Shown: positions 3,183-28,238 of the stretch, piece after piece
How positions within the stretch are numbered: the first letter of the stretch is position 1
Layout: each line of letters begins with the position of its first letter
IMG/VR virus record: IMGVR_UViG_3300029286_001043
Span: 28,228 to 92,227 of that record
From: a virus
Lineage: Duplodnaviria; Heunggongvirae; Uroviricota; Caudoviricetes
Reading direction: 5' to 3' (one strand)
Length of the DNA: 64,000 nucleotides
Made by a program: the position numbers and the translations under genes
The notes under the pieces: generated by a model
Told to the model about the DNA's origin: nothing
Database searches by the model: none
The model's input: the letters and a program-made list of their open reading frames with translations, nothing else

Positions 3183-4502
3183 TTAGGATAATCCGCTTAT
3201 TGTTCCATGGCAAAACGCGCCTGGATTTATTACTTTATACGCTGCTGAACTTAAAAAACCCTTTTGGGCTTTAAGATCTGTAGCAGTAATTAAAGTACTT
3301 GTAGTAAAAAGTGGAATATACGGGCAGAATGCAAATGCGCCTTGAATAAAACTGTCACCTTTCCATCCAAAGATTATTTCAGCTGCAGATAAGAACGGAT
3401 CATGAACAACAACGCGACCGTCCAGTGTACCTAAAACATAAGGACCTGTAGGTGTAATACCGTCAAGACCGGGAGCGGCTTTAAAGTTCGGAGCCAACTG
3501 ACGAATAAGTCTTGATGTATCGTTACCGGCAATAATCCAAGAACATTGCATCCTTAATGTCTTAGCTAAGATGTTAACGTTTGCTTTTTCAACGAAATCA
3601 AGGAACTGATATTTCTTCCAAATCCATTCTGCGCCAGTAGCAACAGTAGCGGAGAAATCGCCTGGAGTAGTAGCACAGCCAGTACCAGTTGAAGCATCGT
3701 TGATCAAGTCGATACCTAAGTGGTCCATCGTAACACGAACTTCTCCACCTAAATATTTTACTACTTCGTCTTCAAGAGAAAGACCATGAGCCTTCTGAAG
3801 ATCAAATGCAGCAGCTAAGCTGTATTGAGCCATCAGAGGGAAATCCTCGGCAGTTACTGTCTCATAAGTTAAGTCGAAATTAACTGAAGGAACAGCAGCT
3901 GAGGTCTTTGTTTCGTAGTTGTATTTGTATGTTGCGCTACCAGATGTGATCGCGAGGTCATTTGTAATTTCAATTGCACCAGTTGTATAGTTGATTGTAC
4001 CAGCTTCAAGTAAAGAAGCATCGTCAGCAACCAATACATTCGCGCCATTATCTGTATATGTACGAGTACCACCTGCATCTACAATGGTAATAACTGCAGA
4101 ACCGGCAATTACAGGAATATAAGCTAATGTACCAGTTTTAATGTTCGCAGCTTGTCCGACTTTAGTTGTCAAAACAACAACTTCGTCCTGAACTCTCGTA
4201 GAAGCATACCTACGACCAGCCCTTGTTGTATTATGGCCAGTTTTTGCAGCCATCATATTTGAATCTGCAGCAATTGCGCCTTTAGCCTGACCATACTTCA
4301 CGTCAAGATAAAAAACTCCGCCAGATCGGCGGTCTAAAGCCTGAACAATCGCCAACTCGTTTAATACTGTGCTAGGAATAAGAGCAGCTATAATAGGTAA
4401 CTGTCGTTCTGTAATCTCTTCTTTAGAAGAGTGTCGGACTATATCATCATCCTCAAAATATTTACTAATTCTATTTTGGGAGCTGGGCGCTATTTGAAAC
4501 AT
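3183..4502 (-). CDS. gp23: major capsid protein, T4 gp23-like (HK97 fold)
   Basis: 439-aa ORF in the head module downstream of the prohead protease gene. Composition and length are typical of T4-type MCPs. The conserved C-terminal tail is duplicated in the adjacent HEG. Confidence 0.75.
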   Translation of the reverse strand: MFQIAPSSQNRISKYFEDDDIVRHSSKEEITERQLPIIAALIPSTVLNELAIVQALDRRSGGVFYLDVKYGQAKGAIAADSNMMAAKTGHNTTRAGRRYASTRVQDEVVVLTTKVGQAANIKTGTLAYIPVIAGSAVITIVDAGGTRTYTDNGANVLVADDASLLEAGTINYTTGAIEITNDLAITSGSATYKYNYETKTSAAVPSVNFDLTYETVTAEDFPLMAQYSLAAAFDLQKAHGLSLEDEVVKYLGGEVRVTMDHLGIDLINDASTGTGCATTPGDFSATVATGAEWIWKKYQFLDFVEKANVNILAKTLRMQCSWIIAGNDTSRLIRQLAPNFKAAPGLDGITPTGPYVLGTLDGRVVVHDPFLSAAEIIFGWKGDSFIQGAFAFCPYIPLFTTSTLITATDLKAQKGFLSSAAYKVINPGAFCHGTISGLS

Positions 4503-5448
4503 TATTAGACCTTTCGTCTTCAGTTTCTAGTCTCTGCACCTTACAATTACTTAATTTATTGTCCATATTATCTTGTAATTCAGACAATAGAAAGGGTAAC
4601 TGTCTTGGCTCAGGATTACCATAAAAATAATTAAAAATATCTTTAGTATATAAACCATACATTAATCCATTAACCTTGCAATAATCTCTAAGAGCATTTA
4701 ATTTCGTTATCGTTAACTTATCATTTAATAAATGTGAACCTTTTATTTCAATTATTGCAATAGTTTCATTATTCACATTTAAAATTTTAAAATCTGGATA
4801 AGTATTATGCCCGTCATATGGAATAGCAAGTTTACTGCGCTGAACTATTAATAGAGAACCTATTCGGCGTTTAAATCCATGCAAAAATTCAAGTTCTAAT
4901 CCAGAACCGTAGAATACATTATCAAAATATCCACGTTTAACCTTTCCATAAAGTGATAATGAACTTCTAAAATCAATACCTTCTTGTGATGAATTCCATT
5001 CGTTCATCTTTATGGCAGTTCTATCATGATATTCCGGATCTGACCAAATCTTTGTCATTGATTTAGACATTTTTTCTCGTTTTAATATTGCCTTTTCTAT
5101 TCCCATTTGCTCTTCATAAGATCGAGAACTCTTTTCACTTAATTGTTTTCTAATTTGCAAGGCCTTCTGGATACCGTATTGCTGTTCAAAAGTTTTACAG
5201 CGTCTTTTATCGCCAGACACTTTCCCACCAATCTTAGTAAATCCCGTTTCCATTACTGTTTTAATAAGACCGGCTCGTTGTTTAGCTATCTTCTTATTAG
5301 CGTGTTCTTCACCATATCTTTCAATATATGATACCCCAGCTAATAAATGATTCTGATAACTAATATGACAAGACCGACTACAAAACTCGCGTTTCGACGG
5401 TATTTCCTTTGAACATTGTCTACAAATATTTTTAACTTTATTTTCCAT
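4471..5448 (-). CDS. homing endonuclease-like protein (Zn finger, NUMOD-like repeats, PD-(D/E)xK domain)
   Basis: N-terminal CxxC...CxxxC. Repeats YGEEHANKKIAKQRAGLIKTV and YGIQKALQIRKQL. C-terminal YPDFKILNVNNETIAIIEIKGSHLL is a PD-(D/E)xK core. Overlaps the MCP start by 32 nt. Confidence 0.6.
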   Translation of the reverse strand: MENKVKNICRQCSKEIPSKREFCSRSCHISYQNHLLAGVSYIERYGEEHANKKIAKQRAGLIKTVMETGFTKIGGKVSGDKRRCKTFEQQYGIQKALQIRKQLSEKSSRSYEEQMGIEKAILKREKMSKSMTKIWSDPEYHDRTAIKMNEWNSSQEGIDFRSSLSLYGKVKRGYFDNVFYGSGLELEFLHGFKRRIGSLLIVQRSKLAIPYDGHNTYPDFKILNVNNETIAIIEIKGSHLLNDKLTITKLNALRDYCKVNGLMYGLYTKDIFNYFYGNPEPRQLPFLLSELQDNMDNKLSNCKVQRLETEDERSNNVSNSAQLPK

Positions 5449-5791: not shown

Positions 5792-8700
5792 TTATTGCCC
5801 CATTGCTCTAAAAGCGGAAGCAATTTGTTTAGATATTACTGATTCTTCAATCGGCTCGCCAACATTGATCTCGGTCACAGGATTAAAGTGTAATCCATTT
5901 CCTCTAATCATGTCTTGAACCATTTCAATAAGTTTATCTACTTCCGATACTGACTTACATGATTCGAAAAGTGTTCGAACATTGTCAGGAAGCTTCAAAC
6001 CCATTGTTTTGACCTTTGTTTCGGTATATGTCTTAACGAGCCCCATAGCGTGGGACTCTTTAAGCAATCTAATTTGCTTCTCATTTGATTCTTTAAGCTG
6101 CTTTATTTGATCTTCGATATTCTTCAATTGTTTTTCTAATTTAGATTTTATTTCTTCGGCTTTTGCTAATGCAGAAGATTTATCACCTAATTTTTCATTC
6201 AATTCTTTTATTGTCTTCTTCGATTCTTCTAATTCCCCATGCTCTTTATGAAAATTAGCAGAAACTTTCACCAATTCCGCTGTTTTTGCATCCAAATGGG
6301 CAGATACGTCTCTTAGCTTAGAAGACAAATCTGAAACATCATGCGTATAATTTGCGGATACTTCGTTAACTCTCTTCTCTAATACAGTACCTAATTCAAT
6401 TGCCTTATCCCGTTCGGCAATTAGGATTGCTTCAGAAACTTTTGTTTTAGACTCATTATTAAAACCGACCCTTAATAATTCTTTAAAAAATGCGGGGTTT
6501 TCTTTCATAATTCTCTGCATTTCTTCTTTATCTTTTTTATCTGATTCCTCATTCGCTTCCTTAGCCTCTACCGTAGTATTAACCGTCTTGATCTCGCCCT
6601 TACCGTCTTCCCTCTTCTCTTTGTACTCTTCGGCCTTCTTGTCTTTAATATCCTGTTTGTCGATAATATCTTGCTTGACAGTTTCAGGTGTTGTAATTGC
6701 CGCTTCATTCTTCTTTTCATTCATATAAGTCTCGGCTCTCTTTAACGATTCTTTATATTCCCAAACCATTGTTGAACACTCTATAATTTTTTCTTGCCGT
6801 AAATCAATAACTATATCTATCTTTTTGCCCATTTTCTTTTCTAAACTGTCAGTTATTTCAGATATTTGTCCTTGATAATCGGTAGTAAATACATTAGAAT
6901 CTATTGCAACAAAAACATAATTTTCAGGCATAAATATAATATACCCGCCTATTAAATACTTATCCTCTTTTTTATATCCTAATTCAATTAAATCCTTTTT
7001 GCCATCATAATATTCTAATTTAGCAGAGCCAGTATTATATACCCAAGTGCCAATAGGTAAAGCTCCACGTTGTACAATAGACCAGGACCTAGATAAAACG
7101 GTTTGTTTTTTCTGTTCATCAGTTAAGTCTTTAAAGTCTTCAGTTAATCCTACTATTTTAATATATGCTTGATTTAAAATCAGACTCTCACCTATCTTCA
7201 TGATCTCAGCTTCCAATCCACGTCTCTGAATTTCTTTCATCAGTGCATCGACTTCCTTGTTTAATTCTTGATGATCGTCAGAAGCCATTGATTTATACCT
7301 AGTTAATATCTCTTCATTGGACAATTTGGAAAGATCTGCAGATTCAGTAATATCCTTTTTCTCTCCCGGCCCGCCAAATTCATTCTCTAATTCAGCTTCA
7401 GTTTTATCCACCAATTTCTTAAATTCAGCAGGACTGATTCCCCTCTTATCCGCATATTTCTTGGCCAATTCCGGATCGTCTGAACCTGAATTAATATAGT
7501 CAAGAATATCAGCCGGAACTTTCTTACCTTCCACCACCTTCGATTCCTTCATCAATGAATCAGGATAATGTTTAGACATTTTATTTTTGTTATTGGCCCA
7601 GAATAAATCGGCTTGTTTACTATACTTGCCCTTCCACCAATTTGCAGCAGCAACATTCGCCTTATCTTCTGGCCATCCTAATTGAGATTGACATTCAGCA
7701 GATACTGAACCGAAATTATTACCGCCGACTCTACCTGCTATAACACTTATTTGCCAAGCTTCTTTATCGGTCAAAACTAAACTCGCCTCTTCTACCTTGG
7801 CTTCAGTTACTACCATAAAATCCTGAGCCGAATCGTCTGAATCTAATTCAACTATAACCTTATTACCGTCCGCTTTCATATGAATAATATGCTTATTGCG
7901 TAATTCCTTAAACGTAGTCTCATTTGTTTTAGCTTCATTCGACACCTTAGCTCCTATCCACTTTACCTTATTAGATTTGCAAGCCGGACAAATCATTCGA
8001 TCGTTTTGATCTACTGAAACTGCAAATATATCTCCATTCCATCCACAGTCAGGACAGAACATTTTGCAGCTTTCGTCTAACGATTCTTTCAATTCTTCTC
8101 TAGTTCGAGCAATAACCTTAGGCAATAACTCCTTCAGCAATAAAACATTGTTCTCAGGATATTTCTCCCCTATTACTTTAACTATCTCTTCATCAGTATT
8201 GCCATCTATCACCATGTCCTTTACGACCGCTTCAATATCGTCGTAAATACCTTCGTCTAACTCCTTTAATTCATCCTTTAAATCTTTGGTAATGGTTTTG
8301 ATCTTCTCAGTATCATTGTTAATCTTTTGAATATCATCTTTAATGGCCTCATCGACAATTGCAGCATCACAGCATGAACTCTTGTCATCGCCTTGAGTTA
8401 CTCGAGCCCCACATTTAGAACAGACTTTGCCATGGGCGATCTTGTTGTCGTCGTTCTGATAGTCTTCTTTTACTTCAATTTTATTCTTTAATTTCCATAA
8501 TTCACCCGATTCTAATTTAGAAATCTGACCATCGTTTTCAGCCTTTTCTATTTCATCCTCAATTACTGATAATGCCGGTCTATTTATATAATTAGGATTG
8601 GTAATCATATCTACTAATTCATCGTATCTTCTGCTTTCTTTTACTTCGACTTCGTTAGCATGCTCACATCCGCCACTACACTTCTTTTCCCCTAACTTAC

Positions 8701-9379
8701 ATTTACACTCTTTATGCTGCTTGTCTATAGAAATATCTTCTTTCAGCTTGAGTGCCTTCTTCGATCCGGCCTTTTCTAATAAAGCAATAGCAACATTTTT
8801 ATTTATAGCATGAGATTCATAATTAGTCCGTACCGCTTTAACAATATCTTCAGGTTCAGTTTTAGAACAACTAGGATCCCCAGTGTGATCAACTGTAATA
8901 AATTTATATGAATCAGGTATTACTCGACTATACTTCTCGCCCGATTCATCAACTTCTTCTGATAATTCACCATCGGCCCTAGTACTTGCTGGAACTTTTA
9001 CGCCTGCTTCATGTAAAATCCAAATGAACTTTCCAGAATCTGTAGGAAGTATATCAAAATCAGCTTTAACCTCATTAGTAGATTCATCTATAAACATATT
9101 ACTAATAACATGTGAAGTCCGATCTTTATCTAATTTAATTGAAGATTCGGCTGGATGCTCATGCTCGCCTAATATTTGTCTAGCCTTTAATTTACTTTGA
9201 AATTCGGGATCATTAAGAACATTATCCCAGACTTTCCGTCCATAAATCCGTTTATTAGCATTTTTTTCGTCAATTACACAAATAGTCCGACGAATTCTAG
9301 CCAAAATACCGGATGGCAATTTTTTAGGATCGTTCTCTAAAATTTGTGTTTCATCTAAAATTCGTTCATTTAAATTCAT
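5792..9379 (-). CDS. gp21: giant prohead protease-like protein: N-terminal T4 gp21-like prohead core protease domain fused to ~1000 aa of zinc-ribbon and acidic coiled-coil (scaffold-like) sequence
   Basis: N-terminus NANKRIYGRKVWDNVL...ILGEHEHP parallels T4 gp21 NRNKRLYPKRILEKAV...LGELNHP. Several CxxC zinc ribbons (CPDCGW...CPACK, CSKCGARV). Long Lys/Glu heptad-rich C-terminal region. Continuous 1195-codon ORF. Confidence 0.55.
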   Translation of the reverse strand: MNLNERILDETQILENDPKKLPSGILARIRRTICVIDEKNANKRIYGRKVWDNVLNDPEFQSKLKARQILGEHEHPAESSIKLDKDRTSHVISNMFIDESTNEVKADFDILPTDSGKFIWILHEAGVKVPASTRADGELSEEVDESGEKYSRVIPDSYKFITVDHTGDPSCSKTEPEDIVKAVRTNYESHAINKNVAIALLEKAGSKKALKLKEDISIDKQHKECKCKLGEKKCSGGCEHANEVEVKESRRYDELVDMITNPNYINRPALSVIEDEIEKAENDGQISKLESGELWKLKNKIEVKEDYQNDDNKIAHGKVCSKCGARVTQGDDKSSCCDAAIVDEAIKDDIQKINNDTEKIKTITKDLKDELKELDEGIYDDIEAVVKDMVIDGNTDEEIVKVIGEKYPENNVLLLKELLPKVIARTREELKESLDESCKMFCPDCGWNGDIFAVSVDQNDRMICPACKSNKVKWIGAKVSNEAKTNETTFKELRNKHIIHMKADGNKVIVELDSDDSAQDFMVVTEAKVEEASLVLTDKEAWQISVIAGRVGGNNFGSVSAECQSQLGWPEDKANVAAANWWKGKYSKQADLFWANNKNKMSKHYPDSLMKESKVVEGKKVPADILDYINSGSDDPELAKKYADKRGISPAEFKKLVDKTEAELENEFGGPGEKKDITESADLSKLSNEEILTRYKSMASDDHQELNKEVDALMKEIQRRGLEAEIMKIGESLILNQAYIKIVGLTEDFKDLTDEQKKQTVLSRSWSIVQRGALPIGTWVYNTGSAKLEYYDGKKDLIELGYKKEDKYLIGGYIIFMPENYVFVAIDSNVFTTDYQGQISEITDSLEKKMGKKIDIVIDLRQEKIIECSTMVWEYKESLKRAETYMNEKKNEAAITTPETVKQDIIDKQDIKDKKAEEYKEKREDGKGEIKTVNTTVEAKEANEESDKKDKEEMQRIMKENPAFFKELLRVGFNNESKTKVSEAILIAERDKAIELGTVLEKRVNEVSANYTHDVSDLSSKLRDVSAHLDAKTAELVKVSANFHKEHGELEESKKTIKELNEKLGDKSSALAKAEEIKSKLEKQLKNIEDQIKQLKESNEKQIRLLKESHAMGLVKTYTETKVKTMGLKLPDNVRTLFESCKSVSEVDKLIEMVQDMIRGNGLHFNPVTEINVGEPIEESVISKQIASAFRAMGQ

Positions 9380-10520: not shown

Positions 10521-11627
10521 TTACGCCTTGGACTGAATCAGACCATTCACAACTGTTATTGTGAAATCCCATCCATCGATGAAGGTACCAGTAAACCCAC
10601 TTACTGCTCCAGAATATCCTGAGAATCCAGAGATTCCAGAGTAACCTGATTTGCCAGAGTACCCACTGAATCCAGAGATTCCTGAATAACCAGAAATACC
10701 TGAGTATCCTGAAATTCCAGAATACCCGCTGAATCCAGAAATACCAGAATAACCAGAGAATCCACTTATACCCGAATAGCCAGAGAATCCAGAGATACCT
10801 GAATAACCTGAAAATCCAGAGATACCAGAATAACCTGAGAATCCACTTATACCACTATACCCGCTATAACCTGAAATTCCTGAATAGCCAGAAAATCCTA
10901 ATGTAGTAGGTTCTCCTGAAATTCCAGAGTATCCGCTGAATCCTGAAATACCGCTATATCCAGAGATACCAGAATATCCTGAAATACCGGAATATCCACT
11001 ATACCCTGAGATACCTGAATAACCAGAATATCCTGAGATTCCTGAGTATCCGGAGATTCCACTATAGCCTGAATATCCTGAAATACCCGAGTAGCCAGAG
11101 TAACCAGAGATTCCAGAATAACCACTAAATCCGGAAATACCTGAGTAACCTGAAGTTCCCGGGCTATCTCCTGAATATCCTGAAGTTCCTACTCCTGAAT
11201 AACCAGAGATACCAGAATAACCTGAGTAACCAGAAATTCCGGAGTATCCACTGAATCCTGAAATACCGCTATATCCTGAATAGCCTGAGATTCCAGAATA
11301 TCCACTGAATCCTGAAATACCTGAGTATCCGGAAAATCCTGAAATACCAGAGTAACCAGAATAACCGCTGATTCCAGAGTAACCACTTATACCACTGTAA
11401 CCTGAAATTCCAGAGTAACCTGAGATACCGGAATAACCAGAAAATCCTGAAATGCCTGAGTAACCTGAAATACCTGAGTAACCTGAGATACCTGAGTAAC
11501 CTGAGATACCGGAATAACCTGAATATCCAGAGATACCTGAATATCCTGATTCCCCGCCGGCTTGACCAGAGATTCCAGAATAGCCGCTTGCTCCTGTACT
11601 GCCTCCACCACCGTGATATATACTCAT
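10521..11627 (-). CDS. hexapeptide-repeat fibrous protein, (G-Y/F-S-G-I-S)n ~55 repeats, with a short non-repetitive C-terminal domain
   Basis: 368-aa ORF made almost entirely of GYSGIS/GFSGYS units. C-terminus AVSGFTGTFIDGWDFTITVVNGLIQSKA. Open through a ~1-kb 18-nt tandem repeat. Other frames of the repeat are also open (the 75/65/74-aa shadow ORFs). Confidence 0.65.
   Translation of the reverse strand: MSIYHGGGGSTGASGYSGISGQAGGESGYSGISGYSGYSGISGYSGISGYSGISGYSGISGFSGYSGISGYSGISGYSGISGYSGISGYSGYSGISGFSGYSGISGFSGYSGISGYSGYSGISGFSGYSGISGYSGYSGISGYSGVGTSGYSGDSPGTSGYSGISGFSGYSGISGYSGYSGISGYSGYSGISGYSGISGYSGYSGISGYSGYSGISGYSGISGYSGISGFSGYSGISGEPTTLGFSGYSGISGYSGYSGISGFSGYSGISGFSGYSGISGFSGYSGISGFSGYSGISGFSGYSGISGYSGISGYSGISGFSGYSGKSGYSGISGFSGYSGAVSGFTGTFIDGWDFTITVVNGLIQSKA
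10575..11600. repeat. tandem 18-nt (hexapeptide-coding) repeat array
   Basis: Imperfect repetition of units such as cctgaaataccagaataa/cctgagtaaccagaaatt throughout. Confidence 0.8.
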
Positions 11628-11663: not shown

Positions 11664-12107
11664 TTACGCTAATGTTAAATCTACAATCGTAGCATTTGCT
11701 GCATATACTAATATAATAGATGAAACTGCTGTAGCATCGATACACTGCTTGAACCCGTCTCCGGTAATCAAACTAGTTGCCGGAGTATTTGAAGCCGAAT
11801 TGAAGAATACGTCTACCCGCCCAGTTACACAATAAATATCCAGATCTAAAGTGAAGTTTCCAGTAGGTACTGTAATTGTGTCTACTTCAGTATCGTCTCC
11901 AGTATATGATTCTGAAACTATATTGCTATTACTTGCATATGGGGCATCTGAAGTCTTCGTTATCCCCGTAGGCAAAGGAGTTCTGATTGTCTCATATGTT
12001 TCCTTTGATTCCCCGGGTTCTATTCTTGTACTTCCGACTGTTACTACTGTTGCTGTACTGTTAAGATAGGTTGGACACATGTTCAACTCCTTCTTTATGA
12101 AATTCAA
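11664..12107 (-). CDS. hypothetical protein, Thr/Ser/Val-rich (possible structural/beta-rich)
   Basis: 147-aa ORF downstream of a HEG. The start may instead be the internal MCPTYLN Met at 12080. Confidence 0.4.
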   Translation of the reverse strand: MNFIKKELNMCPTYLNSTATVVTVGSTRIEPGESKETYETIRTPLPTGITKTSDAPYASNSNIVSESYTGDDTEVDTITVPTGNFTLDLDIYCVTGRVDVFFNSASNTPATSLITGDGFKQCIDATAVSSIILVYAANATIVDLTLA

Positions 12108-13026
12108 TTAATTTTTGTTTTAATAATATTTTATCTTTTAACTCTTTTTCCCAAACAACTAAAGTTTTATAGCCATACTCACTATATTTTTGTAATCTAT
12201 TATTATCTTTTTCTTCAGAACCTGATATATTATGCCAATAATCTCCATAAAGCTCAACAATCTTCTTTTGACCGTTAATATTTATAAAATCAGGAAAGAA
12301 TCCTCCTATCATAACTTCAAACCCACCTACAAATTTGTAGTTACTAGGAAATAAATTATTTAGTATATCTAATAATTTTTGTTCTGATTTATTAATTTTT
12401 TTATTATGAGAACTAGCTTTAGTCATCATTAACATATGTTCTTTAGAATTAACTTGATTTGTTTTAGCTTCTTCCTTTTTAATTCCAGACATATTTTTAC
12501 ACACTTCATCTCGTTTTTCGGTATGTGACCAATGAGATTTGTCCCTCTTTGCTCGATATTCAGGACTTTTCCACATATTTAATCTGGCAATACTTCTATT
12601 CTGTATAGCTTCAGGAGTAGCATTACCAATTTTTCTTTTCTCTAATAATTTATCTCTTCGGATAGGATCAGACCATATTTGTTTCCAACCGAATAATTTA
12701 TAATTTATAACACACAAATGAGAACAGAATTGTTGATCAGATCGCTTACCTATAAATATATTATTACATGTTAGACATTGCTTTTCTTTTATTTTAGATT
12801 TCACATTTTCTCTATAACATTTTCGAGAACACACTTGTTTATATCCTTTAATTATATGAACAAATTTTGTAGAATTACCACATATTATACAACACCCATC
12901 TAATTCTTTCTTTAAGTATTTATCATAATAAACCCTAGAAGAAAGTTTATGCGTTCTCCATACATGTTTAGATAACCCTATTATAGTATTAAATTGTCTA
13001 TTACATATTAAACATGTACAAATCAA
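12061..13026 (-). CDS. homing endonuclease-like protein (multiple Zn fingers + Vsr/DUF559-like nuclease)
   Basis: Cys-rich N-terminus (CxxC x4). FPDFININGQKKIVELYGDYWHN...YKTLVVWEKEL nuclease core. TTG start preceded by AAGGAGAAAAGG. Confidence 0.65.
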   Translation of the reverse strand: MICTCLICNRQFNTIIGLSKHVWRTHKLSSRVYYDKYLKKELDGCCIICGNSTKFVHIIKGYKQVCSRKCYRENVKSKIKEKQCLTCNNIFIGKRSDQQFCSHLCVINYKLFGWKQIWSDPIRRDKLLEKRKIGNATPEAIQNRSIARLNMWKSPEYRAKRDKSHWSHTEKRDEVCKNMSGIKKEEAKTNQVNSKEHMLMMTKASSHNKKINKSEQKLLDILNNLFPSNYKFVGGFEVMIGGFFPDFININGQKKIVELYGDYWHNISGSEEKDNNRLQKYSEYGYKTLVVWEKELKDKILLKQKLIEFHKEGVEHVSNLS

Positions 13027-17689: not shown

Positions 17690-20600
17690 CTATTTATTAA
17701 AACTTTCTGGAATTATCTTCGCTTTCCCATATTGCTCTTCCCACTTCGTATTCTTTCCTTCGTTCAGCGGTAGTGCCGCCTTCAAATCTGAATTGTCGAT
17801 CCTTGCATTTATACTTGCCTTGAATGGATTCTCTCCTGCACCGGCCGCCATTGGTGCTCCTCCTACTTCGCCCTCTTCTGGAATCTCTGGGGTAGTAAGA
17901 GGCCCTACTTGCTGTTCTACTTCTTTAACGACCTTGTCAAAATCAAAGTCAGACAAGTGCAAGATCTTCTCGTTGAAGTATTTCAGTACTTCTAATTTAT
18001 TGTACCCAGTCTCGCCTAATGTAGTATTCAAAATTTCAACCATCTTAGTAACTACATCGGCTCCACTCGACAGTCCTTCCATCAATTCAGCATTTTCGGC
18101 AGTAGACGTTTCTCCCATCTTTAATTCAAACATCTCTAGATCTGGATCTTTACCTTGATAGGCTAAATGAATCTGCACTAACCTAGTCAATCCTACAATT
18201 AGAGCTCTTTGAATTCTTCGGCATTGACGAGAGAACCTAATATCAAGACGTTCGAAGTTATTACTTCCTATTCCACTGGGTACATCCTTCTGATATCCAC
18301 CTAACAATTGTAACGGTACTCTTAAAGCACAAGAGAGTTGATCTCTCAACTCTTCAATATCCCTTATCCATTTTATATCTACCTCCCCACCTAATTTTTC
18401 TATTCGTACACTATTGACATCTCCCCATACAGGCAGGATTATATCTTCCACGGCTGAATTATGTAAAAATACGCCAGCAGCAACCGGAAAATTATGGTTA
18501 TGTTCTATTTGAATATCATAAGTATCTTCACGTTCAATTAATTGTTCAACTCTAATTACTTTGTGATTCTGAATTACGGCTAAATCAGATTGTACTTTCT
18601 GTTTTCTTTCTGTCCATATCTTTGTAATTGTTTCCCCGATAACTCGGTCATAATGTTCTCTATTTTTATATTTTTGAGTATGTGTTTTTATACATTCGAA
18701 AGTCTCTCCACAACCGCAAGCGCAAGTCCTCGTTTCACGCCGATTTTTATATTCAATTTTAAATTTAGGACCGGATGGACATGAATTGATGTGCGCACCT
18801 AATGATCCGGCAGTTCCTAACCATGTTATATAACATAGCGGACAGGTTAATTGTCTAAGTTTTTTTGCTGATTTTTTCTGTTTAGATTTTATTATTTTCG
18901 CTTTATCTTTACCGTAAATTTTATCGTAAGAACCTAATTTTTTACCTTTATTTTGTTGAATTTGACCGATATGACTAATTGATAACTGTTCCTTTATTTG
19001 TTTCGCTTTATTTTCGCCATATAATTCAATATATGTTTTATTTTTGCGTGTTTTACTAAATGAATGTTTTCGCTGTTTAACTTTTATCTGTTCAGCCTTT
19101 TCTTCCCCATATATCTCTTCATATGTTTTACCAGTACAATGCTCTTTCGACCATTGCCCGCCAAACTTACTATGATAGGCCCAATGATCAATATAATGCA
19201 TCAATTCAAAATTGGTAGGATCATTATTTAATTTATTAAAATCAATATGATGAATAGACATACCGCGTTTTGGCTTTTCGCTATTGCTTTTCTTAAAAAC
19301 TAATCTATGTTCATAATGATATTGATTATCGGCTGGATTATATACTAATCTATACCCAGGTAATCCAGGATTCGTTGCAATTTTAGTATACAATGGCATA
19401 AGACTTTCACTTTGTCCTAAATCCTTAGCCATTTTGTATTCCCCATTCCTCAGCATAAATCGATGATCCGGTGTACAATCTATATATTGTTCGTTGTCTA
19501 AATGGACTCGAATTAATTCGGCATTCAATCGAGTTTTACATACTCCTACTAGTTTATTAGGTTCTAATTCTAAAGTTTGTTCATTAATAGTCCATACTGA
19601 TTTTCCAATATATTCATTTGGTTTTTCTGCCATTTCTTCGATTGTTGGTTCAGTACCATCCAATAAACTTATTTTAGTATTTCCTCTAAGACATAAATTG
19701 TCCATTCTCTCTTTATATGGATTTGGACTAGTTGCTGAAATATCTAATGAATTGTGAACAAAAATACCATCAGTTAATCCAAAATTATGATTTCGTTCTG
19801 TGGTTATATCATAAGTATCTTCTCTAATAACTAATCTTTCTACTCTAACTACCTTATGATTAATAATTGCAGGTTCTAATTTTCTTCTTGCCCATGCCAG
19901 TTTTAGAGATTCAGATCTCCTTTTTAACGTCTCTGGTGACGGTTTAATTCCAAGGTGTCCTTCACTCATATGTTTTTTCGATTCGGCGGAATGAATTGTA
20001 CCTTTATTCTTTACCCCAATCTTTTGTTTATGTTCTTCAGTCATCGGCTTATTTTTTCTATTATGCCCAACTGCATATTGCCATAAAGACGTAATTATAA
20101 CTTCTTTGCTATAACCACATCCACATTTACAAAAACGAATTTCGTGCGGTAATCTTAAATACCGTTTTCCGGCTAAAAAATTGTTTCTGCGTGATTCTTT
20201 TTGTTTATTAATATTTTCAATTGGCCTTTTATATCCAGTTCGTGATTTAGAAATTTTAGCGCAAATATGACTATTCTCTTTAGTTAATCCCTTTGTTACA
20301 TGAGGCTTAACTAATCCTAGAGACTTCTTCACTAAATAGGTTTCAGCTTTCTTTGCTAATCTTTCATCCGTTTCCTTAGTTAATCCTTTACTCCACCCAA
20401 GCTTTAAAGATTTATTATATGTTTTGTATTTACCATCCTTAGAATTTTGAATATTATGTAAAGCTAAATGTCTCCCTCTAAGTTCAAATTTTAAATTAGA
20501 TGGATCATCATCGCATTTTCTAAAATTCTTATGATGAATAACATGTCCTTTCGGCGTTTTGCCGAATAAAAATTCGAATGCAGTTTTAAATACCAATTCA

Positions 20601-23125
20601 TATTTTCCGGATTTAGGATTAAATATATAATTTCGTTGATCCTTATTTCGTCTAGTATATAATGGCATAAGACTTTCACCTTCAATCAGATCTTTAGCTT
20701 CTTTATACTCCCCATCTCTCAGCATAAACCTATGATCCGGAGTACAATCAATATACAATTCGTTATCTAAATGGACTCTTACTAATTCAGCATTCAATCT
20801 AGTCTTCTGAACATTTATTATTTTATCCGGTTCAAAAGCTTTAGTTTCAGTATTAATACTATATACATATTTCCCAATATATTTATTAGGATCATCAGCC
20901 ATTTCCTTAATAGTAGGATTAGATCCACTTAGCAAACTTATTTTTGTATTTCCTCGAAGACATAAATTCTTCTTCAATACTGCGCCGTACTCGTCTAATA
21001 TTGCAGTAACAGCATCGGCATTTGAATTCTTGTCTACTCCAATCAGGAATACTCTCTGTCCCTGTCCTCGTACTACTCTGCTCATCAACAAAGAATCTTC
21101 CGCCATCTTCAATCGTTTGTAAGGAACTAATGCATTATTCAATACACTCGTTCCATATTTACTTGATACTCTTCGAGCATCTGGAGTTAGCATACTCATA
21201 GGGTTATATCCTTGTGTTGCCGAATCTCCAAATATAACTCTTCTCTTCTTCGTACCCAATAATCTGAAGTGGGCAAATGCATATGGAGGCAATAGAGTTT
21301 CAGCTGTATTCACTGACATTCCGGCTTGACCTGGCGTCTTAAAGAATCCGACCAATCTTCCGTCTACGTCTACTCTTGAATAATCTAATGGATGGGCCGA
21401 ATCTTCTACACTTACAATCCCTACTCCTGGAATTGCATTGATCTGGACGAACATATCACCATACAGACAATTATGAACAAATACCCCAGCCCCAACTGAA
21501 AAATTATGATTTTTAGTTGTAGTTATATCATATACATCTTCACGTTCAATTAATCGTTCAACTCTAACTACTTTATGATTCAAATATTCTTTGCGTTTAC
21601 TCAACATTACCAGACAATTAGCCGTTCTAGCTAATCTCTGCTTTTCAGTTATTTCTATTTTAATATGATTTTCTTTACGAAAAGAATTAATTAATGAATA
21701 AGTTGTATTTTGTTTAGTATTATGGCATTCCTCACAAAGTGTTATTCCATTACTTATATCCCAAAATGGTTTCCAAGTCATTGCTAACCTAACCAATATT
21801 TCCTTATCTTCAATAGGAGAAAATTGTGAATAATGTTTAAGAAATTCAGTTAATAATATAGAAAAAGGAATAATATGATGTGATCTAAGATGATGGCCTA
21901 TCTTTCCACATTCCTGACAGGTATAACTATCACGTTCAAAAACTTCCTTTCTCCAAAATTTATATTCTTCTAATTTATGGATAAGACCATATAAATTAAT
22001 ATGAATAAGACCTTTCCAACCGCTTTTCCGAATTGGTATATTAAATCTTCTTAAACGATCAGCTATAACCCCGCCGGGTACATTAATTATATTCGATATC
22101 TGTGGAATTGAAAACATTTGTTTTAAATATAAATCTTCTAAAAGTTCACGAGTAATAATATATTTATATTTTTTCTCTTTAACTATATTTCGGTTTTGAA
22201 CTATTTTTTGAGTTTCAGTCTTTGAACGAAGTGGAATACCGAATTTCCTTAAATAACAATCAACCGATGCACAGCCGATTAACTTGGTTATCCAAAGCAC
22301 AGAAAACTTTTTATTAACATAATTTTCGATCAAAAAATCCTTAGTTAAACTTAATTTTTGTTTTGAATACCAAAGGTTATCCTCAGGATTATAAACTCCA
22401 ATACCACCTTTATAGGCCTTAGTATACAACGGCATAAGACTTTCGCCTTCAACTAAATCCTTAGCTTCTTTGAACTGACCATCTCTCAGCATAAACCTAT
22501 GATTATTCGTACAATCGACATATTCACCATTGTCTAAATGAACGCGAACTAATTCAGCGTTCAGACGAGTTTTATAAACCCCAGCAATAGTATCTACTTC
22601 CAATCTCATAGTTTCAGGATTAACACTCCATAAATACTTCCCAACATATTCTTTCGAATTTTCAGCCATTTCTTTAATAGATGGCTGAGAACCGTCTAAA
22701 AGATTAATCTTCGTATTTCCCCGTAAACACATCGTGTACGCCCAATCGTATATTACTTCTTCTAAATTTATACTATCAAACAGCTTGTCAATCTGGTATT
22801 GATATTCCTTACTCTTTGCATCTGCCCATACAGTAACATTGTTTGTCGTACTCTTGCTCGTGCTGAAGTCTGAATACAGTTCTACAGCTGAACTCATCAA
22901 TGGGTGTTCTACGCTCGCCTTCTCCACTGCTACATATACCGATCGCCGGTCCGTAGCGACCTGGAGCATCTGTTGAATTGCCTTGTTCAGATCAGAGGTT
23001 ACAATCCCAATTCGCTTAAATTGCTCTTTCTCTACTTCTGATGTCTTGATTACTGGTAATTCCTTGGCAGGTATGACAGAAGTACTAGGACTTAACTTCT
23101 TACGCAGATAATTGATAATGTCCAA
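17690..23125 (-). CDS. gp20: portal protein (T4 gp20-like) interrupted by three inteins; 1811-aa precursor, ~575-aa spliced extein
   Basis: Extein segment ...DIKWIRDIEELRDQLSCALRVPLQLLGG... aligns with T4 gp20 ...[20 protein letters not shown].... Located just after TerL. Three insertions each start CLRGNTKI(N/S)LL, contain a TxxH block (DCT(N/P)(N/D)HRFM) and end (V/I)F(V/L)HN followed by C/S/S. TTG start with AAGGAG RBS. Confidence 0.8.
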   Translation of the reverse strand: MDIINYLRKKLSPSTSVIPAKELPVIKTSEVEKEQFKRIGIVTSDLNKAIQQMLQVATDRRSVYVAVEKASVEHPLMSSAVELYSDFSTSKSTTNNVTVWADAKSKEYQYQIDKLFDSINLEEVIYDWAYTMCLRGNTKINLLDGSQPSIKEMAENSKEYVGKYLWSVNPETMRLEVDTIAGVYKTRLNAELVRVHLDNGEYVDCTNNHRFMLRDGQFKEAKDLVEGESLMPLYTKAYKGGIGVYNPEDNLWYSKQKLSLTKDFLIENYVNKKFSVLWITKLIGCASVDCYLRKFGIPLRSKTETQKIVQNRNIVKEKKYKYIITRELLEDLYLKQMFSIPQISNIINVPGGVIADRLRRFNIPIRKSGWKGLIHINLYGLIHKLEEYKFWRKEVFERDSYTCQECGKIGHHLRSHHIIPFSILLTEFLKHYSQFSPIEDKEILVRLAMTWKPFWDISNGITLCEECHNTKQNTTYSLINSFRKENHIKIEITEKQRLARTANCLVMLSKRKEYLNHKVVRVERLIEREDVYDITTTKNHNFSVGAGVFVHNCLYGDMFVQINAIPGVGIVSVEDSAHPLDYSRVDVDGRLVGFFKTPGQAGMSVNTAETLLPPYAFAHFRLLGTKKRRVIFGDSATQGYNPMSMLTPDARRVSSKYGTSVLNNALVPYKRLKMAEDSLLMSRVVRGQGQRVFLIGVDKNSNADAVTAILDEYGAVLKKNLCLRGNTKISLLSGSNPTIKEMADDPNKYIGKYVYSINTETKAFEPDKIINVQKTRLNAELVRVHLDNELYIDCTPDHRFMLRDGEYKEAKDLIEGESLMPLYTRRNKDQRNYIFNPKSGKYELVFKTAFEFLFGKTPKGHVIHHKNFRKCDDDPSNLKFELRGRHLALHNIQNSKDGKYKTYNKSLKLGWSKGLTKETDERLAKKAETYLVKKSLGLVKPHVTKGLTKENSHICAKISKSRTGYKRPIENINKQKESRRNNFLAGKRYLRLPHEIRFCKCGCGYSKEVIITSLWQYAVGHNRKNKPMTEEHKQKIGVKNKGTIHSAESKKHMSEGHLGIKPSPETLKRRSESLKLAWARRKLEPAIINHKVVRVERLVIREDTYDITTERNHNFGLTDGIFVHNSLDISATSPNPYKERMDNLCLRGNTKISLLDGTEPTIEEMAEKPNEYIGKSVWTINEQTLELEPNKLVGVCKTRLNAELIRVHLDNEQYIDCTPDHRFMLRNGEYKMAKDLGQSESLMPLYTKIATNPGLPGYRLVYNPADNQYHYEHRLVFKKSNSEKPKRGMSIHHIDFNKLNNDPTNFELMHYIDHWAYHSKFGGQWSKEHCTGKTYEEIYGEEKAEQIKVKQRKHSFSKTRKNKTYIELYGENKAKQIKEQLSISHIGQIQQNKGKKLGSYDKIYGKDKAKIIKSKQKKSAKKLRQLTCPLCYITWLGTAGSLGAHINSCPSGPKFKIEYKNRRETRTCACGCGETFECIKTHTQKYKNREHYDRVIGETITKIWTERKQKVQSDLAVIQNHKVIRVEQLIEREDTYDIQIEHNHNFPVAAGVFLHNSAVEDIILPVWGDVNSVRIEKLGGEVDIKWIRDIEELRDQLSCALRVPLQLLGGYQKDVPSGIGSNNFERLDIRFSRQCRRIQRALIVGLTRLVQIHLAYQGKDPDLEMFELKMGETSTAENAELMEGLSSGADVVTKMVEILNTTLGETGYNKLEVLKYFNEKILHLSDFDFDKVVKEVEQQVGPLTTPEIPEEGEVGGAPMAAGAGENPFKASINARIDNSDLKAALPLNEGKNTKWEEQYGKAKIIPESFNK
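18458..19693 (-). other. intein 3 in portal (412 aa, HNH + NUMOD-like repeats + Zn fingers)
   Basis: CLRGNTKISLLDG...AAGVFLHN followed by SAVEDII. Contains MSIHHIDFNKLNNDPTNFELMHYIDHWAYH and YGEEKAEQIK / YGENKAKQIK / YGKDKAKIIK repeats. Only 19 extein residues separate it from intein 2. Confidence 0.75.
19751..20962 (-). other. intein 2 in portal (404 aa, HNH-like + NUMOD-like repeats)
   Basis: CLRGNTKISLLSG...GIFVHN followed by SLDISAT. Contains HVIHHKNFRKCDDDPSNLKFEL...HLALHN and WSKGLTKETDERLAKK repeats. Confidence 0.75.
21470..22729 (-). other. intein 1 in portal (420 aa, HNH endonuclease insert)
   Basis: Begins CLRGNTKINLLDG after extein ...YDWAYTM and ends ...GAGVFVHN before CLYGD. 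HNH motif YTCQECGKIGHHLRSHHIIPFS...NGITLCEECHN. Boundary checked at nucleotide level (aat at 21470-21472). Confidence 0.75.
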
Positions 23126-23208: not shown

Positions 23209-23865
23209 TTATATTATTTTTTTTCTTAACTCTTTGCCTGCTAAATACTTTCTACATTTGTTTAATACTTCTTCTACCTTCTTTATCGACTTCCAATACG
23301 GAATCCCAATCTTCTTATATAGATCTTTGAATTTAACACGATTTAAGTACTTCTCTTCCAATATATTAAACCCATCTACCTCGGTTCTAAGATCTTCTAT
23401 CATCCTAATTTCATCCAATTTCTCCCTCAGGTCTTCCGTATAGTAGTTTACCGCATTCTTCTCCAACCACTCCATGTCTTCAATACTGATGTTTGACTGT
23501 TCTTTGATCTTTACTCGGTATGAAGCGAGGAGTTCGATCTTCAGATATGACCCAATCCGAAGACAGATCTGAGTTGAATCCCAAGTAACTGGCATTGAGA
23601 TCAGACTCTTATGAAGAGCAATTACACTGATATTGAAGAGTTCTCGGATATCCTCGTCGGCCAGAAAACTCTTGAATTTTCGCTTGAAATAGAAACACAT
23701 TTGAAGAAGGAAGTATTCAAACCGAAAAACTAGAAGACTGAATAATTCAGAACTCTTGGTTTCTTTATACTTCAGAATCAGTTCCTTGACTTCTACCATC
23801 GACAGGTTAAGGAGTATATGGAGTTCCTCGTTCCTAATTCGTGCTTCGTCAGGTCTATTGTCCAA
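23209..23865 (-). CDS. hypothetical protein between TerL and portal
   Basis: 218-aa ORF. The 5' half is noticeably more GC-rich than the very AT-rich 3' half. No confident motif. Confidence 0.4.
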   Translation of the reverse strand: MDNRPDEARIRNEELHILLNLSMVEVKELILKYKETKSSELFSLLVFRFEYFLLQMCFYFKRKFKSFLADEDIRELFNISVIALHKSLISMPVTWDSTQICLRIGSYLKIELLASYRVKIKEQSNISIEDMEWLEKNAVNYYTEDLREKLDEIRMIEDLRTEVDGFNILEEKYLNRVKFKDLYKKIGIPYWKSIKKVEEVLNKCRKYLAGKELRKKII

Positions 23866-25846
23866 TTCTGCGTTTCCTCATAATTTCTGCTAGGTTCTTC
23901 ATTCCTTCGCTAGTCTGAACTTGAATAATCTCTTGCCCATCAGGAGCAAACATCTTCAGATCTATCTTTTCAGTCTTACCTAATAGATTAGAATTCGACC
24001 TCCTGATCAGATCTACCATTAGCCCAGCCGGAATCTGAGGATTTGTATTCAATAGAGCTCGATATATCGACTGGGCAATCGCGTCAGCCATATCCTTGCT
24101 TCCTTCCATTATTACTTCCCTTGTTTCCCCACTATCTAAAAACTCGACATCAGCAATCGTCTCAGGGTGGTCGACCTTTCCGGTAGTTGGGTCCTTCTCT
24201 AAATTGGCTAGCTCGATCAATATCATCGGGTGACGATGGCAGATCCATCTCTTTTCATAAATAAGATTTATTAAATCTAGATATGGCTTCGGATCTTTGT
24301 CTACACTCTGGTACTCAGTCTTTACCCCGGCTGCTGAAAGCAATTGGAATGTATCTTCAGCAGCAAGAGGCAAATCAGATGAAAATTCGGCAATGATAAA
24401 TCCTACGGCTTTCAAATCCAATACTAGTTTCCTAATCTTATGGATCGGAATCCGATCTCCTTCTTTCGCCTTGATCCTCATTACAAAATCGGTTTCTATT
24501 ACCGGCATATTATATTTGACAAATGTCCCGTCTTCCTTTTGAGCTGTTATTTCTTTCCATTCTTTTACACACGACATTGCTAGCGCAGCAGCATCATGAG
24601 TAAAAGCAATGTCGAAACTGACAAACCGCTGAACTGTCCTCGGAACTCTGATCGCAGTCAAATCTAAATACCACATCAAATCTACTTCATCCTTCAGCCC
24701 TATACTTATAGTCTGAACTTTAACAGGATCTCGCTTAGTCTCGTCAAAACATTCTATAATCAGATTCTCAGAAGGAATCAGCTTCGACTTCCTCATTCCT
24801 TCTACGGTAATGCCAGCAGTATCGCGAAGTGATCCAATAATGTCCTGTTGAAATTCAGCTTTGAATTCAACCGGCACTTCAATTATATTGAACCCTTTGG
24901 CCTTATGCTCAACCGCTTCGGACTTATCTATTATCTTTGATGGATTAAAAGCATCGCCTATCGCTATCACAAACTTCTCTCCACAGAAAATATGCTTAGG
25001 TTTTGCTTCCCATAAAGGAATATCAAACACCTTTACCTGTGGGTCATTCTTCATCTTAGTAATAAAGTTATCAATGAAAGACTGTTCGCCTTGCCTAGAA
25101 GCAACCAAGAATAACTTTCCTAAACTATACCCAGTCGAAGCAAAGGTATTTTTAAACCTACGAGCGGTTGCGTCGTAGGCGGCAAGCACTCTAGCCTTCT
25201 GCTTTGCCCCTTCATTAGGAGAATCAACCTCGTCTAGAATTCCGCATACTACATCTGACCCTATAACTGCAAATCCTTTGGCGTAAGGAGAAGCTAGTAA
25301 ATATTCAAACAGACTAAATTCCAGCAGTTCTTCTCCTTTAGACTTAGAAACATAAGAAGCCTGTTTTATAAACCATGGAGATTTAGCAAGAAAAGACTGA
25401 AGTTTAGTAAATCCCCTTGAACTTCCTAGACTCTTAGTCAGATTGAAGAAACTGATTGACATCTTTCCGCCGATCGCCAATGAAAAGTATTTCCATGGAT
25501 CTCTAAGAAGAAGCAGTAGGTACATAATATAACAAATTGAATACAGCGCAATCGTAGATTTCCCAGTTCGAATACCGCCGGTAAATACGATATACAACTT
25601 CGAATTGTCCGAAAATATTTCCTTTAAGGCTTCTTTCCAAATAGGATATACAGCTTTGCCATTATCGGTAACTCTACCTAGATATCTATCATCCGAGATA
25701 AAGGTAATAATATCTACAGGAACTTCTTTATAAATCTTAAGAAGCTCCATCTCTCGGATGGTCCTCATTTCCTTTAATGATCTTTTCTTCTCGGTCATAA
25801 TAAAAAAGCGGCAGCCAAGAGAACAATTTACTGTTCCCTCAACCAC
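23855..25846 (-). CDS. gp17: terminase large subunit (T4 gp17-like ATPase/nuclease)
   Basis: Walker A FTGGIRTGKST, ~660 aa, immediately upstream of the portal. GTG start in the track; alternative Met (MTEKKRS) 16 codons in. Confidence 0.8.
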   Translation of the reverse strand: MVEGTVNCSLGCRFFIMTEKKRSLKEMRTIREMELLKIYKEVPVDIITFISDDRYLGRVTDNGKAVYPIWKEALKEIFSDNSKLYIVFTGGIRTGKSTIALYSICYIMYLLLLLRDPWKYFSLAIGGKMSISFFNLTKSLGSSRGFTKLQSFLAKSPWFIKQASYVSKSKGEELLEFSLFEYLLASPYAKGFAVIGSDVVCGILDEVDSPNEGAKQKARVLAAYDATARRFKNTFASTGYSLGKLFLVASRQGEQSFIDNFITKMKNDPQVKVFDIPLWEAKPKHIFCGEKFVIAIGDAFNPSKIIDKSEAVEHKAKGFNIIEVPVEFKAEFQQDIIGSLRDTAGITVEGMRKSKLIPSENLIIECFDETKRDPVKVQTISIGLKDEVDLMWYLDLTAIRVPRTVQRFVSFDIAFTHDAAALAMSCVKEWKEITAQKEDGTFVKYNMPVIETDFVMRIKAKEGDRIPIHKIRKLVLDLKAVGFIIAEFSSDLPLAAEDTFQLLSAAGVKTEYQSVDKDPKPYLDLINLIYEKRWICHRHPMILIELANLEKDPTTGKVDHPETIADVEFLDSGETREVIMEGSKDMADAIAQSIYRALLNTNPQIPAGLMVDLIRRSNSNLLGKTEKIDLKMFAPDGQEIIQVQTSEGMKNLAEIMRKRRIGQ

Positions 25847-28004: not shown

Positions 28005-28238
28005 CTATTTACTCGGTTTCTTTACCTGGTCAACATAAAAATCTACAGGTTTTAATTCTTTTCGCTTTACTGACAACTTATTATTTGGATTGATTACCTC
28101 CTTTTCTCGGCATTTAGTCAAATGACCGTGCCATTTTTTAATTCCTCGTACTTTCTTCTCATAAGCTTCAACCCCCCTCTTCTTCATTGGGGTTTCTCTA
28201 CGCCTTGTACTTGTTTTTACTGTCTTTTCTTTTCCCAC
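28005..28238 (-). CDS. small basic (Lys/Arg-rich) protein, paralogue of ORF 33436..33666
   Basis: 77 aa. C-terminal ...KRKELKPVDFYVDQVKK matches ...YRKELKPLDFYISKIRK in the paralogue. Similar size and charge. Confidence 0.45.
   Translation of the reverse strand: MGKEKTVKTSTRRRETPMKKRGVEAYEKKVRGIKKWHGHLTKCREKEVINPNNKLSVKRKELKPVDFYVDQVKKPSK

Follow-up and report, generated by a model that had tools for sequence, protein, structure and literature searches.

How did three inteins that closely resemble one another come to lie in a single phage gene, and do they still splice and move? The question is raised by a 64,000-nucleotide (nt) stretch of DNA (positions 28,228 to 92,227 of the IMG/VR virus record IMGVR_UViG_3300029286_001043; hereafter, the window), which carries an open reading frame (ORF) of 1,811 codons on its minus strand (17690..23125). 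Probably, the 208-kDa product is the precursor of a phage portal protein from which three class 1 inteins splice themselves out, their HNH nucleases home, and the three inteins belong to separate, site-specific lineages. Sequence anatomy, folds, same-site orthology, distribution and base composition were observed directly; splicing activity, nuclease activity and homing we infer from what is established about inteins and homing endonucleases.

Pattern matching on the translation resolves the precursor into four extein segments of 132, 169, 19 and 255 amino acids (aa), 575 aa in total, and three inteins of 420, 404 and 412 aa. The start codon is TTG, with an AAGGAG Shine–Dalgarno (SD) sequence 8 nt upstream, and the N terminus lines up with the start of a homologous protein, P0123. 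Extein segment 1 (22730..23125, portal residues 1–132; all parts of the gene are on the minus strand) is followed by intein 1 (21470..22729), segment 2 (20963..21469, portal residues 133–301), intein 2 (19751..20962), segment 3 (19694..19750), which is the 19-residue spacer SLDISATSPNPYKERMDNL, intein 3 (18458..19693) and segment 4 (17690..18457, portal residues 321–575 and the stop codon). An earlier, sequence-only reading of the locus had proposed this division, including the 19 extein residues that separate inteins 2 and 3, and the pattern matching agrees with it almost to the residue.

The spliced extein is a full-length, collinear portal protein of the T4 gp20/P1 Prt type. It matches PF07230 (Portal_T4) with an E value of 3.4e-28 (99 bits; cut-off, 22.9), and a scan of PHROG families returned the portal families phrog_213 and phrog_1497 at about 2e-22. 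A portal profile built from 68 intein-free homologues and the query extein finds P1 Prt (3.6e-28) and T4 gp20 (5.5e-11) in the PDB. The same profile matches the window ORF in three collinear pieces (profile positions 3–141, 134–301 and 314–564 in segments 1, 2 and 4, with domain E values of 2.4e-71 for segment 2 and 3.8e-96 for segment 4) that break exactly at the intein boundaries. Segment 4, which matches PF07230, also holds a motif, ALRVPLxLLGGY, that is near-invariant in the homologue consensus. Alignment to portal profiles was the check that the sequence-only reading had set for its gp20-like host, and that identification holds. An AlphaFold2 (AF2) model of the extein has a predicted local distance difference test score (pLDDT) of 75.7, and its best Foldseek matches are 9ums (P1 connector), 9mkb, 6uzc and 3ja7 (T4 portal), with E values of 1e-13 to 3e-10. 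In this model, insertion site 1 lies within a confidently modelled core helix (pLDDT of about 95); sites 2 and 3 lie on either side of a variable, low-confidence loop between a long helix and a β-hairpin, and the spacer forms that loop (pLDDT of about 58–67).

Each insert matches the intein-splicing family PF14890 well above its gathering score (76–89 bits; cut-off, 35.8). Intein 1 (precursor residues 133–552, 49.3 kDa, PF14890 at 4.4e-25) has its N-terminal Hint block (N-Hint) at 22415..22729 and its C-terminal block (C-Hint) at 21470..21589; the corresponding blocks of intein 2 (residues 722–1125, 46.9 kDa, 3.4e-21) are at 20648..20962 and 19751..19870, and those of intein 3 (residues 1145–1556, 47.9 kDa, 3.6e-24) are at 19379..19693 and 18458..18577. 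All three inteins begin with an invariant Cys1 in CLRGNTKI(N/S)LL, carry the block B TxxH motif as DCT(NN/PD)HRFMLR, in which T74 and H77 are invariant, and share the block F/G signature YDI...NHNF...G(V/I)F(V/L)HN. They end in VFVHN followed by Cys (intein 1), IFVHN followed by Ser (intein 2) and VFLHN followed by Ser (intein 3). These are the motifs and +1 residues that the sequence-only reading had quoted; it had also named intein block models as a check, and Cys1 and the block B and F/G signatures are present in all three inteins. The Hint fold was modelled for intein 3 only, with a pLDDT of 84–97 over the Hint and HNH parts, and the top Foldseek matches were the Ssp and Npu DnaB mini-inteins (E = 2e-7; root mean square deviation (rmsd), 1.5–2.5 Å).

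The wider family shows the same constraints. Cys1 is always present in 78 homologous portal inteins, which end in HN (76) or SN (2) and are always followed by Ser, Cys or Thr, and all 81 members of the Hint family carry [TS]xxH in the block B region. At the +1 position of sites 1 and 2, Ala or Gly prevails among intein-free homologues (59 of 69 and 54 of 69, respectively), as opposed to the Cys and Ser of the window protein, and this contrast is an indirect sign of selection for splicing. By these signatures, the inserts are three bona fide class 1 inteins. We also considered class 3 inteins, which lack a nucleophile at position 1 and have a WCT triplet with a block F Cys, and rejected them because all three inserts start with Cys and have class 1 signatures. 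Base composition separates the inserts from their surroundings: the extein has a GC content of 40.8% (36% at third codon positions, GC3), compared with 32% (GC3, 18%) for the Hint parts and 31% (GC3, 20%) for the nuclease parts. By composition, the inserts are thus foreign to the gene that hosts them, and the contrast is a mobile-element signature.

Between its Hint blocks, each intein carries a different nuclease module. That of intein 1 (21590..22414) consists of two helix–turn–helix (HTH)-like repeats and then a zinc-type HNH domain (about 21722..21919) with the motif CQECG...HH...N...CEECH; the CxxC...HH...N...CxxCH pattern is kept in the same-site orthologues P0123.1 and P0218.1. It matches PF01844 (HNH; 21.9 bits, cut-off 21.4), PF13391 (HNH_2; 21.5 bits, cut-off 21) and phrog_8446, an HNH endonuclease family (6.5e-19). 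In intein 2 (module at 19871..20647), an HNH_3 core (about 20492..20581; PF13392 at 24.8 bits, equal to the cut-off of 24.8; phrog_7545 and phrog_314, HNH and homing endonuclease) directly follows the N-terminal splicing blocks, and is itself followed by NUMOD3-like repeats and a CxCGCG zinc motif. Intein 3 (module at 18578..19378) has an HNH_3 core (about 19199..19315; PF13392 at 30.4 bits, cut-off 24.8) at the same position, and its downstream DNA-binding region differs, with three KTYEEIYGxxKA-type basic repeats and two Cys-rich motifs. Inteins 2 and 3 share the catalytic motif HHxD/N...N(L)...H...H, in which H148, H149, N161, H170 and H174 are invariant in the alignment; intein 2 has the variant HHxN..DDDPSNL...H...H, in common with the site-299 orthologues P0121.4 and P0141.2. 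Catalytic motifs are kept in same-site orthologues that are only about 40% identical. No LAGLIDADG family was found in Pfam or PHROG scans of the three inteins, in keeping with the earlier claim that all three nucleases are of the HNH type and that their inserts differ.

On this reading, splicing of each intein would begin with an N–S acyl shift at Cys1 and transesterification to the +1 Cys or Ser; cyclization of the terminal Asn and a further acyl shift would then restore the peptide bond. The expected products are a portal of 575 aa and 64.0 kDa that would be able to form a dodecameric ring, and three free basic inteins of 49.3, 46.9 and 47.9 kDa; the spliced junction peptides would be LFDSINLEEVIYDWAYTMCLYGDMFVQ... 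(junction 1), NLSLDISATSPNPYK (junction 2) and MDNLSAVEDIILPVWGDVNSVR (junction 3). The HNH domain, excised or still borne by the precursor, would cut or nick the empty site in the intein-less portal allele of a co-infecting relative, and recombinational repair from the occupied allele would copy the intein into that site. Nuclease type correlates with insertion site across viruses, which may be read as indirect support for site-specific cleavage and homing. Splicing of all three inteins may reasonably be regarded as obligatory for virion assembly. Unspliced inserts of about 47 kDa at these sites would presumably be hard to square with assembly of the ring.

Several observations weigh against this reading. 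The HNH scores of inteins 1 and 2 are at or barely over the Pfam gathering thresholds, so activity of these two nucleases is only plausible. In the HNH_3 motif, the lineage of intein 2 carries DD in place of the NN found in most relatives, which makes the activity of its nuclease uncertain, and much of the DNA-binding part of intein 3 is poorly modelled (pLDDT below 50 for 104 residues). Mis-pairing or interference between Hint domains that are 66–70% identical is conceivable, particularly for inteins 2 and 3, which lie 19 residues apart. Finally, no relatives with an extein identity above 52% were found, so that any recent gain or loss, and hence any current mobility, is conjectural.

The marginal HNH scores and the DD variant, together with the loss of nucleases elsewhere in the family (17 of 78 related portal inteins are mini-inteins without a nuclease), are what might be expected if at least one intein no longer spliced or homed, so that the window held a dead or crippled allele or decaying passenger nucleases. 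We consider this improbable. The splicing residues are intact in all three inteins, the ORF is open throughout its 5.4 kilobases (kb), and contigs of up to 92 kb from at least three samples encode the identical protein. The DD variant is kept across the site-299/301 lineage, which argues for constraint, and the portal profile found no second, uninterrupted portal gene in the window that could compensate for a defective one.

Turning to how one gene came to hold three inteins, the sequence-only reading had proposed that an intein was duplicated within this gene and landed in ectopic positions, citing near-identical Hint DNA at 75–80% identity. The measured identities are lower—70.5–74% for the N-terminal Hint blocks of about 310–315 nt and 69–76% for the 120-nt C-terminal blocks—and still far above chance (blastn E values of 1e-43 to 1e-57). 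The likeness does favour duplication to some extent: the three Hint domains are mutually 66–70% identical, compared with a mean of 56% and a 95th percentile of 68% against the 78 other portal inteins; they rank first to eighth of 80 among each other's nearest relatives; a 25-nt identical run joins inteins 1 and 2; and such likeness of co-resident Hint domains is not seen in other multi-intein portals.

The nucleases, however, follow the site. That of intein 1 matches only the site-131/132 inteins P0123.1 and P0218.1 (205 bits), that of intein 2 is closest to the site-299 inteins P0121.4 and P0141.2 (117–126 bits), and that of intein 3 is closest to the site-322 inteins P0123.2 and P0250.1 (114–132 bits). 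These same-site orthologues (within 2 aa) reside in viruses with exteins that are only 40–50% identical. In neighbour-joining trees of 81 Hint domains, the three window domains formed a clade in none of 100 bootstrap replicates (inteins 2 and 3 grouped in 23), and inteins 1 and 2 were placed beside their same-site groups. Inteins at other sites of other genomes are equally close (for example, P0001.1 at site 215 is 75% identical to intein 2). Synonymous divergence is also substantial: where the residue is the same, the codon is identical in only 59–66% of positions in the N-terminal blocks and 59–85% in the short C-terminal blocks. Furthermore, all three window sites are filled in other portals. 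A recent intragenic duplication is therefore very unlikely, and the same-site nuclease matches, the absence of a clade and the synonymous divergence leave the earlier proposal unsupported. Across the portal intein family, the closest Hint domain belongs to an intein at the matching site in 41 of 76 cases, and comes from the same protein in only 4 of 53.

The occupied sites place the window gene within a larger pattern. In a large protein collection, 241 homologues of the extein were found at E ≤ 1e-10. Among the best 120 of these matches, 102 are intein-free proteins of 473–666 aa that are 37–52% identical to the extein, and 18 carry exactly one intein of the same subfamily, at many portal positions (N-block E values of 1e-15 to 1e-58). 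When 1.84 billion representative proteins were searched exhaustively with a hidden Markov model (HMM) of the N-terminal Hint block, 216 proteins matched at E ≤ 1e-30, and the best 150 of these are mostly multi-intein proteins. Among 147 newly retrieved proteins, 103 match the portal extein best among the proteins of the window (strongly in about one third and weakly in the rest) and 6 match the window terminase; several of the proteins with weaker extein matches are genuine members of Portal_T4, in which three to five intein matches were found, and others are family A DNA polymerases. Homologues of the terminase large subunit (TerL) elsewhere also carry inteins of this subfamily. In the automatic annotation by JGI, some relatives already appear as 'intein/homing endonuclease' or as 'capsid assembly protein Gp20/intein-like protein'. 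A word-indexed protein search with a 149-aa artificial mini-intein (the N- and C-terminal blocks of intein 2) gave 7 candidates and no match, probably reflecting a limit of the index for short queries.

A sample of 152 portal family members, gathered in a way that favours intein carriers, comprises 102 proteins without an intein, 28 with one, 17 with two, 4 with three and 1 with four. The inteins occupy about 28 distinct points in the numbering of the window extein. Site 132 is occupied in P0218, with P0123 and P0198 one residue away; site 301 is occupied in P0003 and P0122; and site 320 is occupied in P0124, P0130, P0134 and P0261. In the sample examined, only the window protein fills both the 299/301 and the 316–322 groups of sites. 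Insertion points show no enrichment at conserved positions (flank conservation of 0.61, compared with a core background of 0.64).

Other proteins recovered alongside these homologues are also densely populated. P0150 (3009 aa, DNA_pol_A) has six Intein_splicing matches and six N-terminal Hint blocks, each starting with Cys; P0129 (2818 aa, Portal_T4) also has six Intein_splicing matches, and several of its blocks begin with Pro instead of Cys, with indistinct boundaries. If all are true inteins, both proteins surpass the published maximum of five per protein (PMC10710043). In P0161 (1361 aa), two inteins lie back to back (522–852 and 853–995) with no extein residue between them, such that a single Cys serves both as the +1 residue of the first (FVHN|C) and as Cys1 of the second (CLRE...). 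Related inteins also occur in GyrA of Candidatus Uhrbacteria, of the candidate phyla radiation (CPR), and in GyrB of a Planctomycetales metagenome-assembled genome (P0308, P0310 and P0317); these may hint at a cellular pool, or at hosts that exchange inteins of this subfamily.

Read together, the site matches and the distribution suggest that the three window inteins are separate, long-established, site-specific lineages of one Hint subfamily, which has colonized TerL, PolA and GyrA/B in addition to about 28 portal positions, apparently by means of a conserved scaffold combined with varied nuclease modules. What the data show is a pattern of ancient dispersal, in which the subfamily spread ectopically over the portal gene and nuclease modules were exchanged. 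The three inteins appear to us to be the slowly evolving core of a star-like radiation, and there may be weak concerted evolution of co-resident Hint domains. A search for gene-conversion tracts among the three inteins gave no convincing case, the longest identical run being 25 nt. More tentatively, and with considerable doubt, the scaffold might have radiated through repeated swaps of nuclease and DNA-binding modules over the portal points and TerL, PolA and GyrA/B, while intragenic gene conversion, or selection for folding that is compatible and free of interference within the 208-kDa precursor, kept the co-resident Hint domains of this gene unusually alike. If so, the portal family would offer a natural setting in which to study how inteins gain new target sites and how near-identical neighbours avoid cross-splicing.

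A regulatory role for the inteins, in which conditional splicing in response to redox state, metal ions or the state of assembly times the supply of portal, seems very improbable. Conditional splicing is reported for other inteins (for example, zinc-inhibited DnaB splicing), Cys1 and the +1 Cys of site 1 could form a redox trap, and intein occupancy of the portal family is high. Nevertheless, most homologues do without an intein, both in the sample of 152 and among the best 120 extein matches; insertion points are scattered, with no preference for conserved positions; and the inteins have kept site-specific nucleases, as selfish homing elements would. An assembly chimera that joined intein-bearing fragments of different viruses in one ORF can be set aside for practical purposes: repeat blocks of 300 nt that are about 72% identical could in principle mislead an assembler, but k-mer graphs are not collapsed or cross-joined at only 72% identity, reading frame and extein collinearity are perfect, and the exact 1,811-aa product recurs with the same neighbours on five contigs of up to 92 kb from independent assemblies (ENA ERZ27250635; Logan SRR8536341 and SRR8536342; JGI) of at least three samples.

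The portal gene lies in a head-morphogenesis module near the terminase. An intein-free TerL homologue is encoded two genes upstream (23855..25846, minus strand; 30–32% identity to phage TerL by tblastn; PF27249), and a T4-type major head protein (3183..4502) and a gene with an S77-type prohead protease domain (5792..9379, minus strand) are downstream. A megablast search of the gene against 50,697 phage records gave no match; the nearest cultured portal, that of Bacillus phage SP-15, is 26% identical, and the TerL, capsid and portal of the virus are at most 32% identical to those of any cultured phage. The virus is an uncultivated, large, low-GC tailed phage. We considered an archaeal virus, to which the name of the terminase family PF27249 ('MJ0330_N'), one homologue labelled Thorarchaeota and a paper on magroviruses had led, and did not adopt this assignment: the SD sequence is of the bacterial type, there is a DnaB-like helicase, the head genes are T4-like, and the top terminase and capsid matches are bacteriophages.

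Other parts of the window were also annotated. Of its 50 ORFs of at least 150 aa, 49 are on the minus strand, and each 1-kb bin shows a negative GC skew. The protease-domain gene encodes 1195 aa with a weak N-terminal S77 match (23.8 bits; cut-off, 27) and, in an extended C-terminal region, weak, sub-threshold matches of the Laminin_II and Nuf2 types; a 368-aa product (10521..11627, minus strand) has four matches to collagen triple-helix repeats. A 435-aa ORF (45801..47108, minus strand) has a GIY-YIG-type homing endonuclease in its first 165–200 or so residues (MIGFVYKW...YYIGS, with a NUMOD3 motif; phrog_314) and runs in frame into a thymidylate-synthase domain (Pfam, residues 215–394). It is either a nuclease–ThyA fusion or a free-standing homing gene that is read through into thyA. 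Rfam identified no group I intron there; the Rfam and tRNA scans of the whole window were empty, and thus give no hint that group I introns accompany the inteins. Two more putative free-standing nucleases are encoded in the structural module, at 4471..5448 (minus strand; phrog_15427 'endonuclease', flanked by the genes for the major head protein and the protease-domain protein) and at 12061..13026 (minus strand; DUF559/Vsr-like), and the genome seems rich in selfish nucleases. A 974-aa ORF (39684..42608, minus strand) joins an N-terminal Mre11-type metallophosphatase to a Rad50/SbcC-type ATPase (AAA_23, SMC_N and SbcC Walker B). The Mre11 and Rad50/SbcC subunits are usually encoded by separate genes.

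The locus is a real and clean example of a known phenomenon that is common among its metagenomic relatives, and the earlier interpretation was mostly right. Its main value lies in the family-wide pattern, in which about 28 positions are occupied and nuclease modules follow the site and not the genome; this bears on how inteins reach new sites. It is a test case for interference between inteins that are 19 residues apart, and could supply co-functional inteins for protein engineering. Among public metagenomic proteins, some portals and polymerases appear to exceed the published maximum of five inteins, and portals of 1,000–2,800 aa in viral metagenomes should be annotated as intein-laden precursors.

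How unusual is such a gene? The sequence-only reading had called it highly unusual, which was an overstatement: portal inteins, in-frame HNH inteins and proteins with up to five inteins have all been published, and many public metagenomic portals have two to four or more inteins of this subfamily. We found no description of multi-intein gp20-like portals, or of the many-site distribution, in the open-access literature searched. The crAss-like phages, for which 'up to 3 inteins per genome' have been reported along with a two-intein TerL, were said to show an unprecedented density. The portal inteins of actinophages and mycobacteriophages (Kelley et al. 2016, PMC5050341; bioRxiv 10.1101/2025.01.02.630785) are polyphyletic, with five groups in actinophages, and are thought to spread by homing between co-infecting phages; in these surveys, 712 of 784 inteins are of the canonical LAGLIDADG type and in-frame HNH inteins are a rare, non-canonical type. 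The phrases 'two inteins', 'three inteins' and 'multiple inteins' are absent from both papers. Like the actinophage portal inteins, those of the window lie in frame within the portal gene of a tailed phage; unlike them, they number three, are all of the HNH type and occupy an unrelated gp20/Prt-like portal of an uncultivated low-GC phage.

As described in later papers that cite Dalgaard et al. 1997, in-frame HNH inteins consist of a Hint domain with the HNH nuclease between the N- and C-terminal splicing blocks. The window inteins share this architecture, and differ from the inteins as so described in that they show two HNH arrangements (zinc-type with HTH repeats; HNH_3 with NUMOD3-like or basic repeats) and lie in a virion structural gene. 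At the level of the splicing domain, the Ssp and Npu DnaB mini-inteins (PDB 1MI8, 6FRG and 4O1R) are the best matches to the window Hint domain in both structure and sequence (24–27% identity), and share its class 1 chemistry; in contrast to the window inteins, they belong to a cellular helicase, were solved in forms without a nuclease and are distant in sequence.

Proteins with several inteins include the ribonucleotide reductase of Trichodesmium (four), archaeal MCM (four) and Prp8 of Anaeramoeba (five) (PMC10710043). As in these cases, inteins occupy distinct sites of one essential protein and all must splice; three is within the published range, whereas the host is a viral portal and all of its inteins belong to one Hint subfamily and are 66–70% identical. 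Work on haloarchaeal MCM (Turgeman-Grott et al. 2023, PMC10643990) shows that inteins at adjacent sites can hamper one another's homing. The window gene likewise has neighbouring insertion sites within one gene, but it is viral, its nucleases are of the HNH type, and two of its sites are separated by 19 codons (57 bp).

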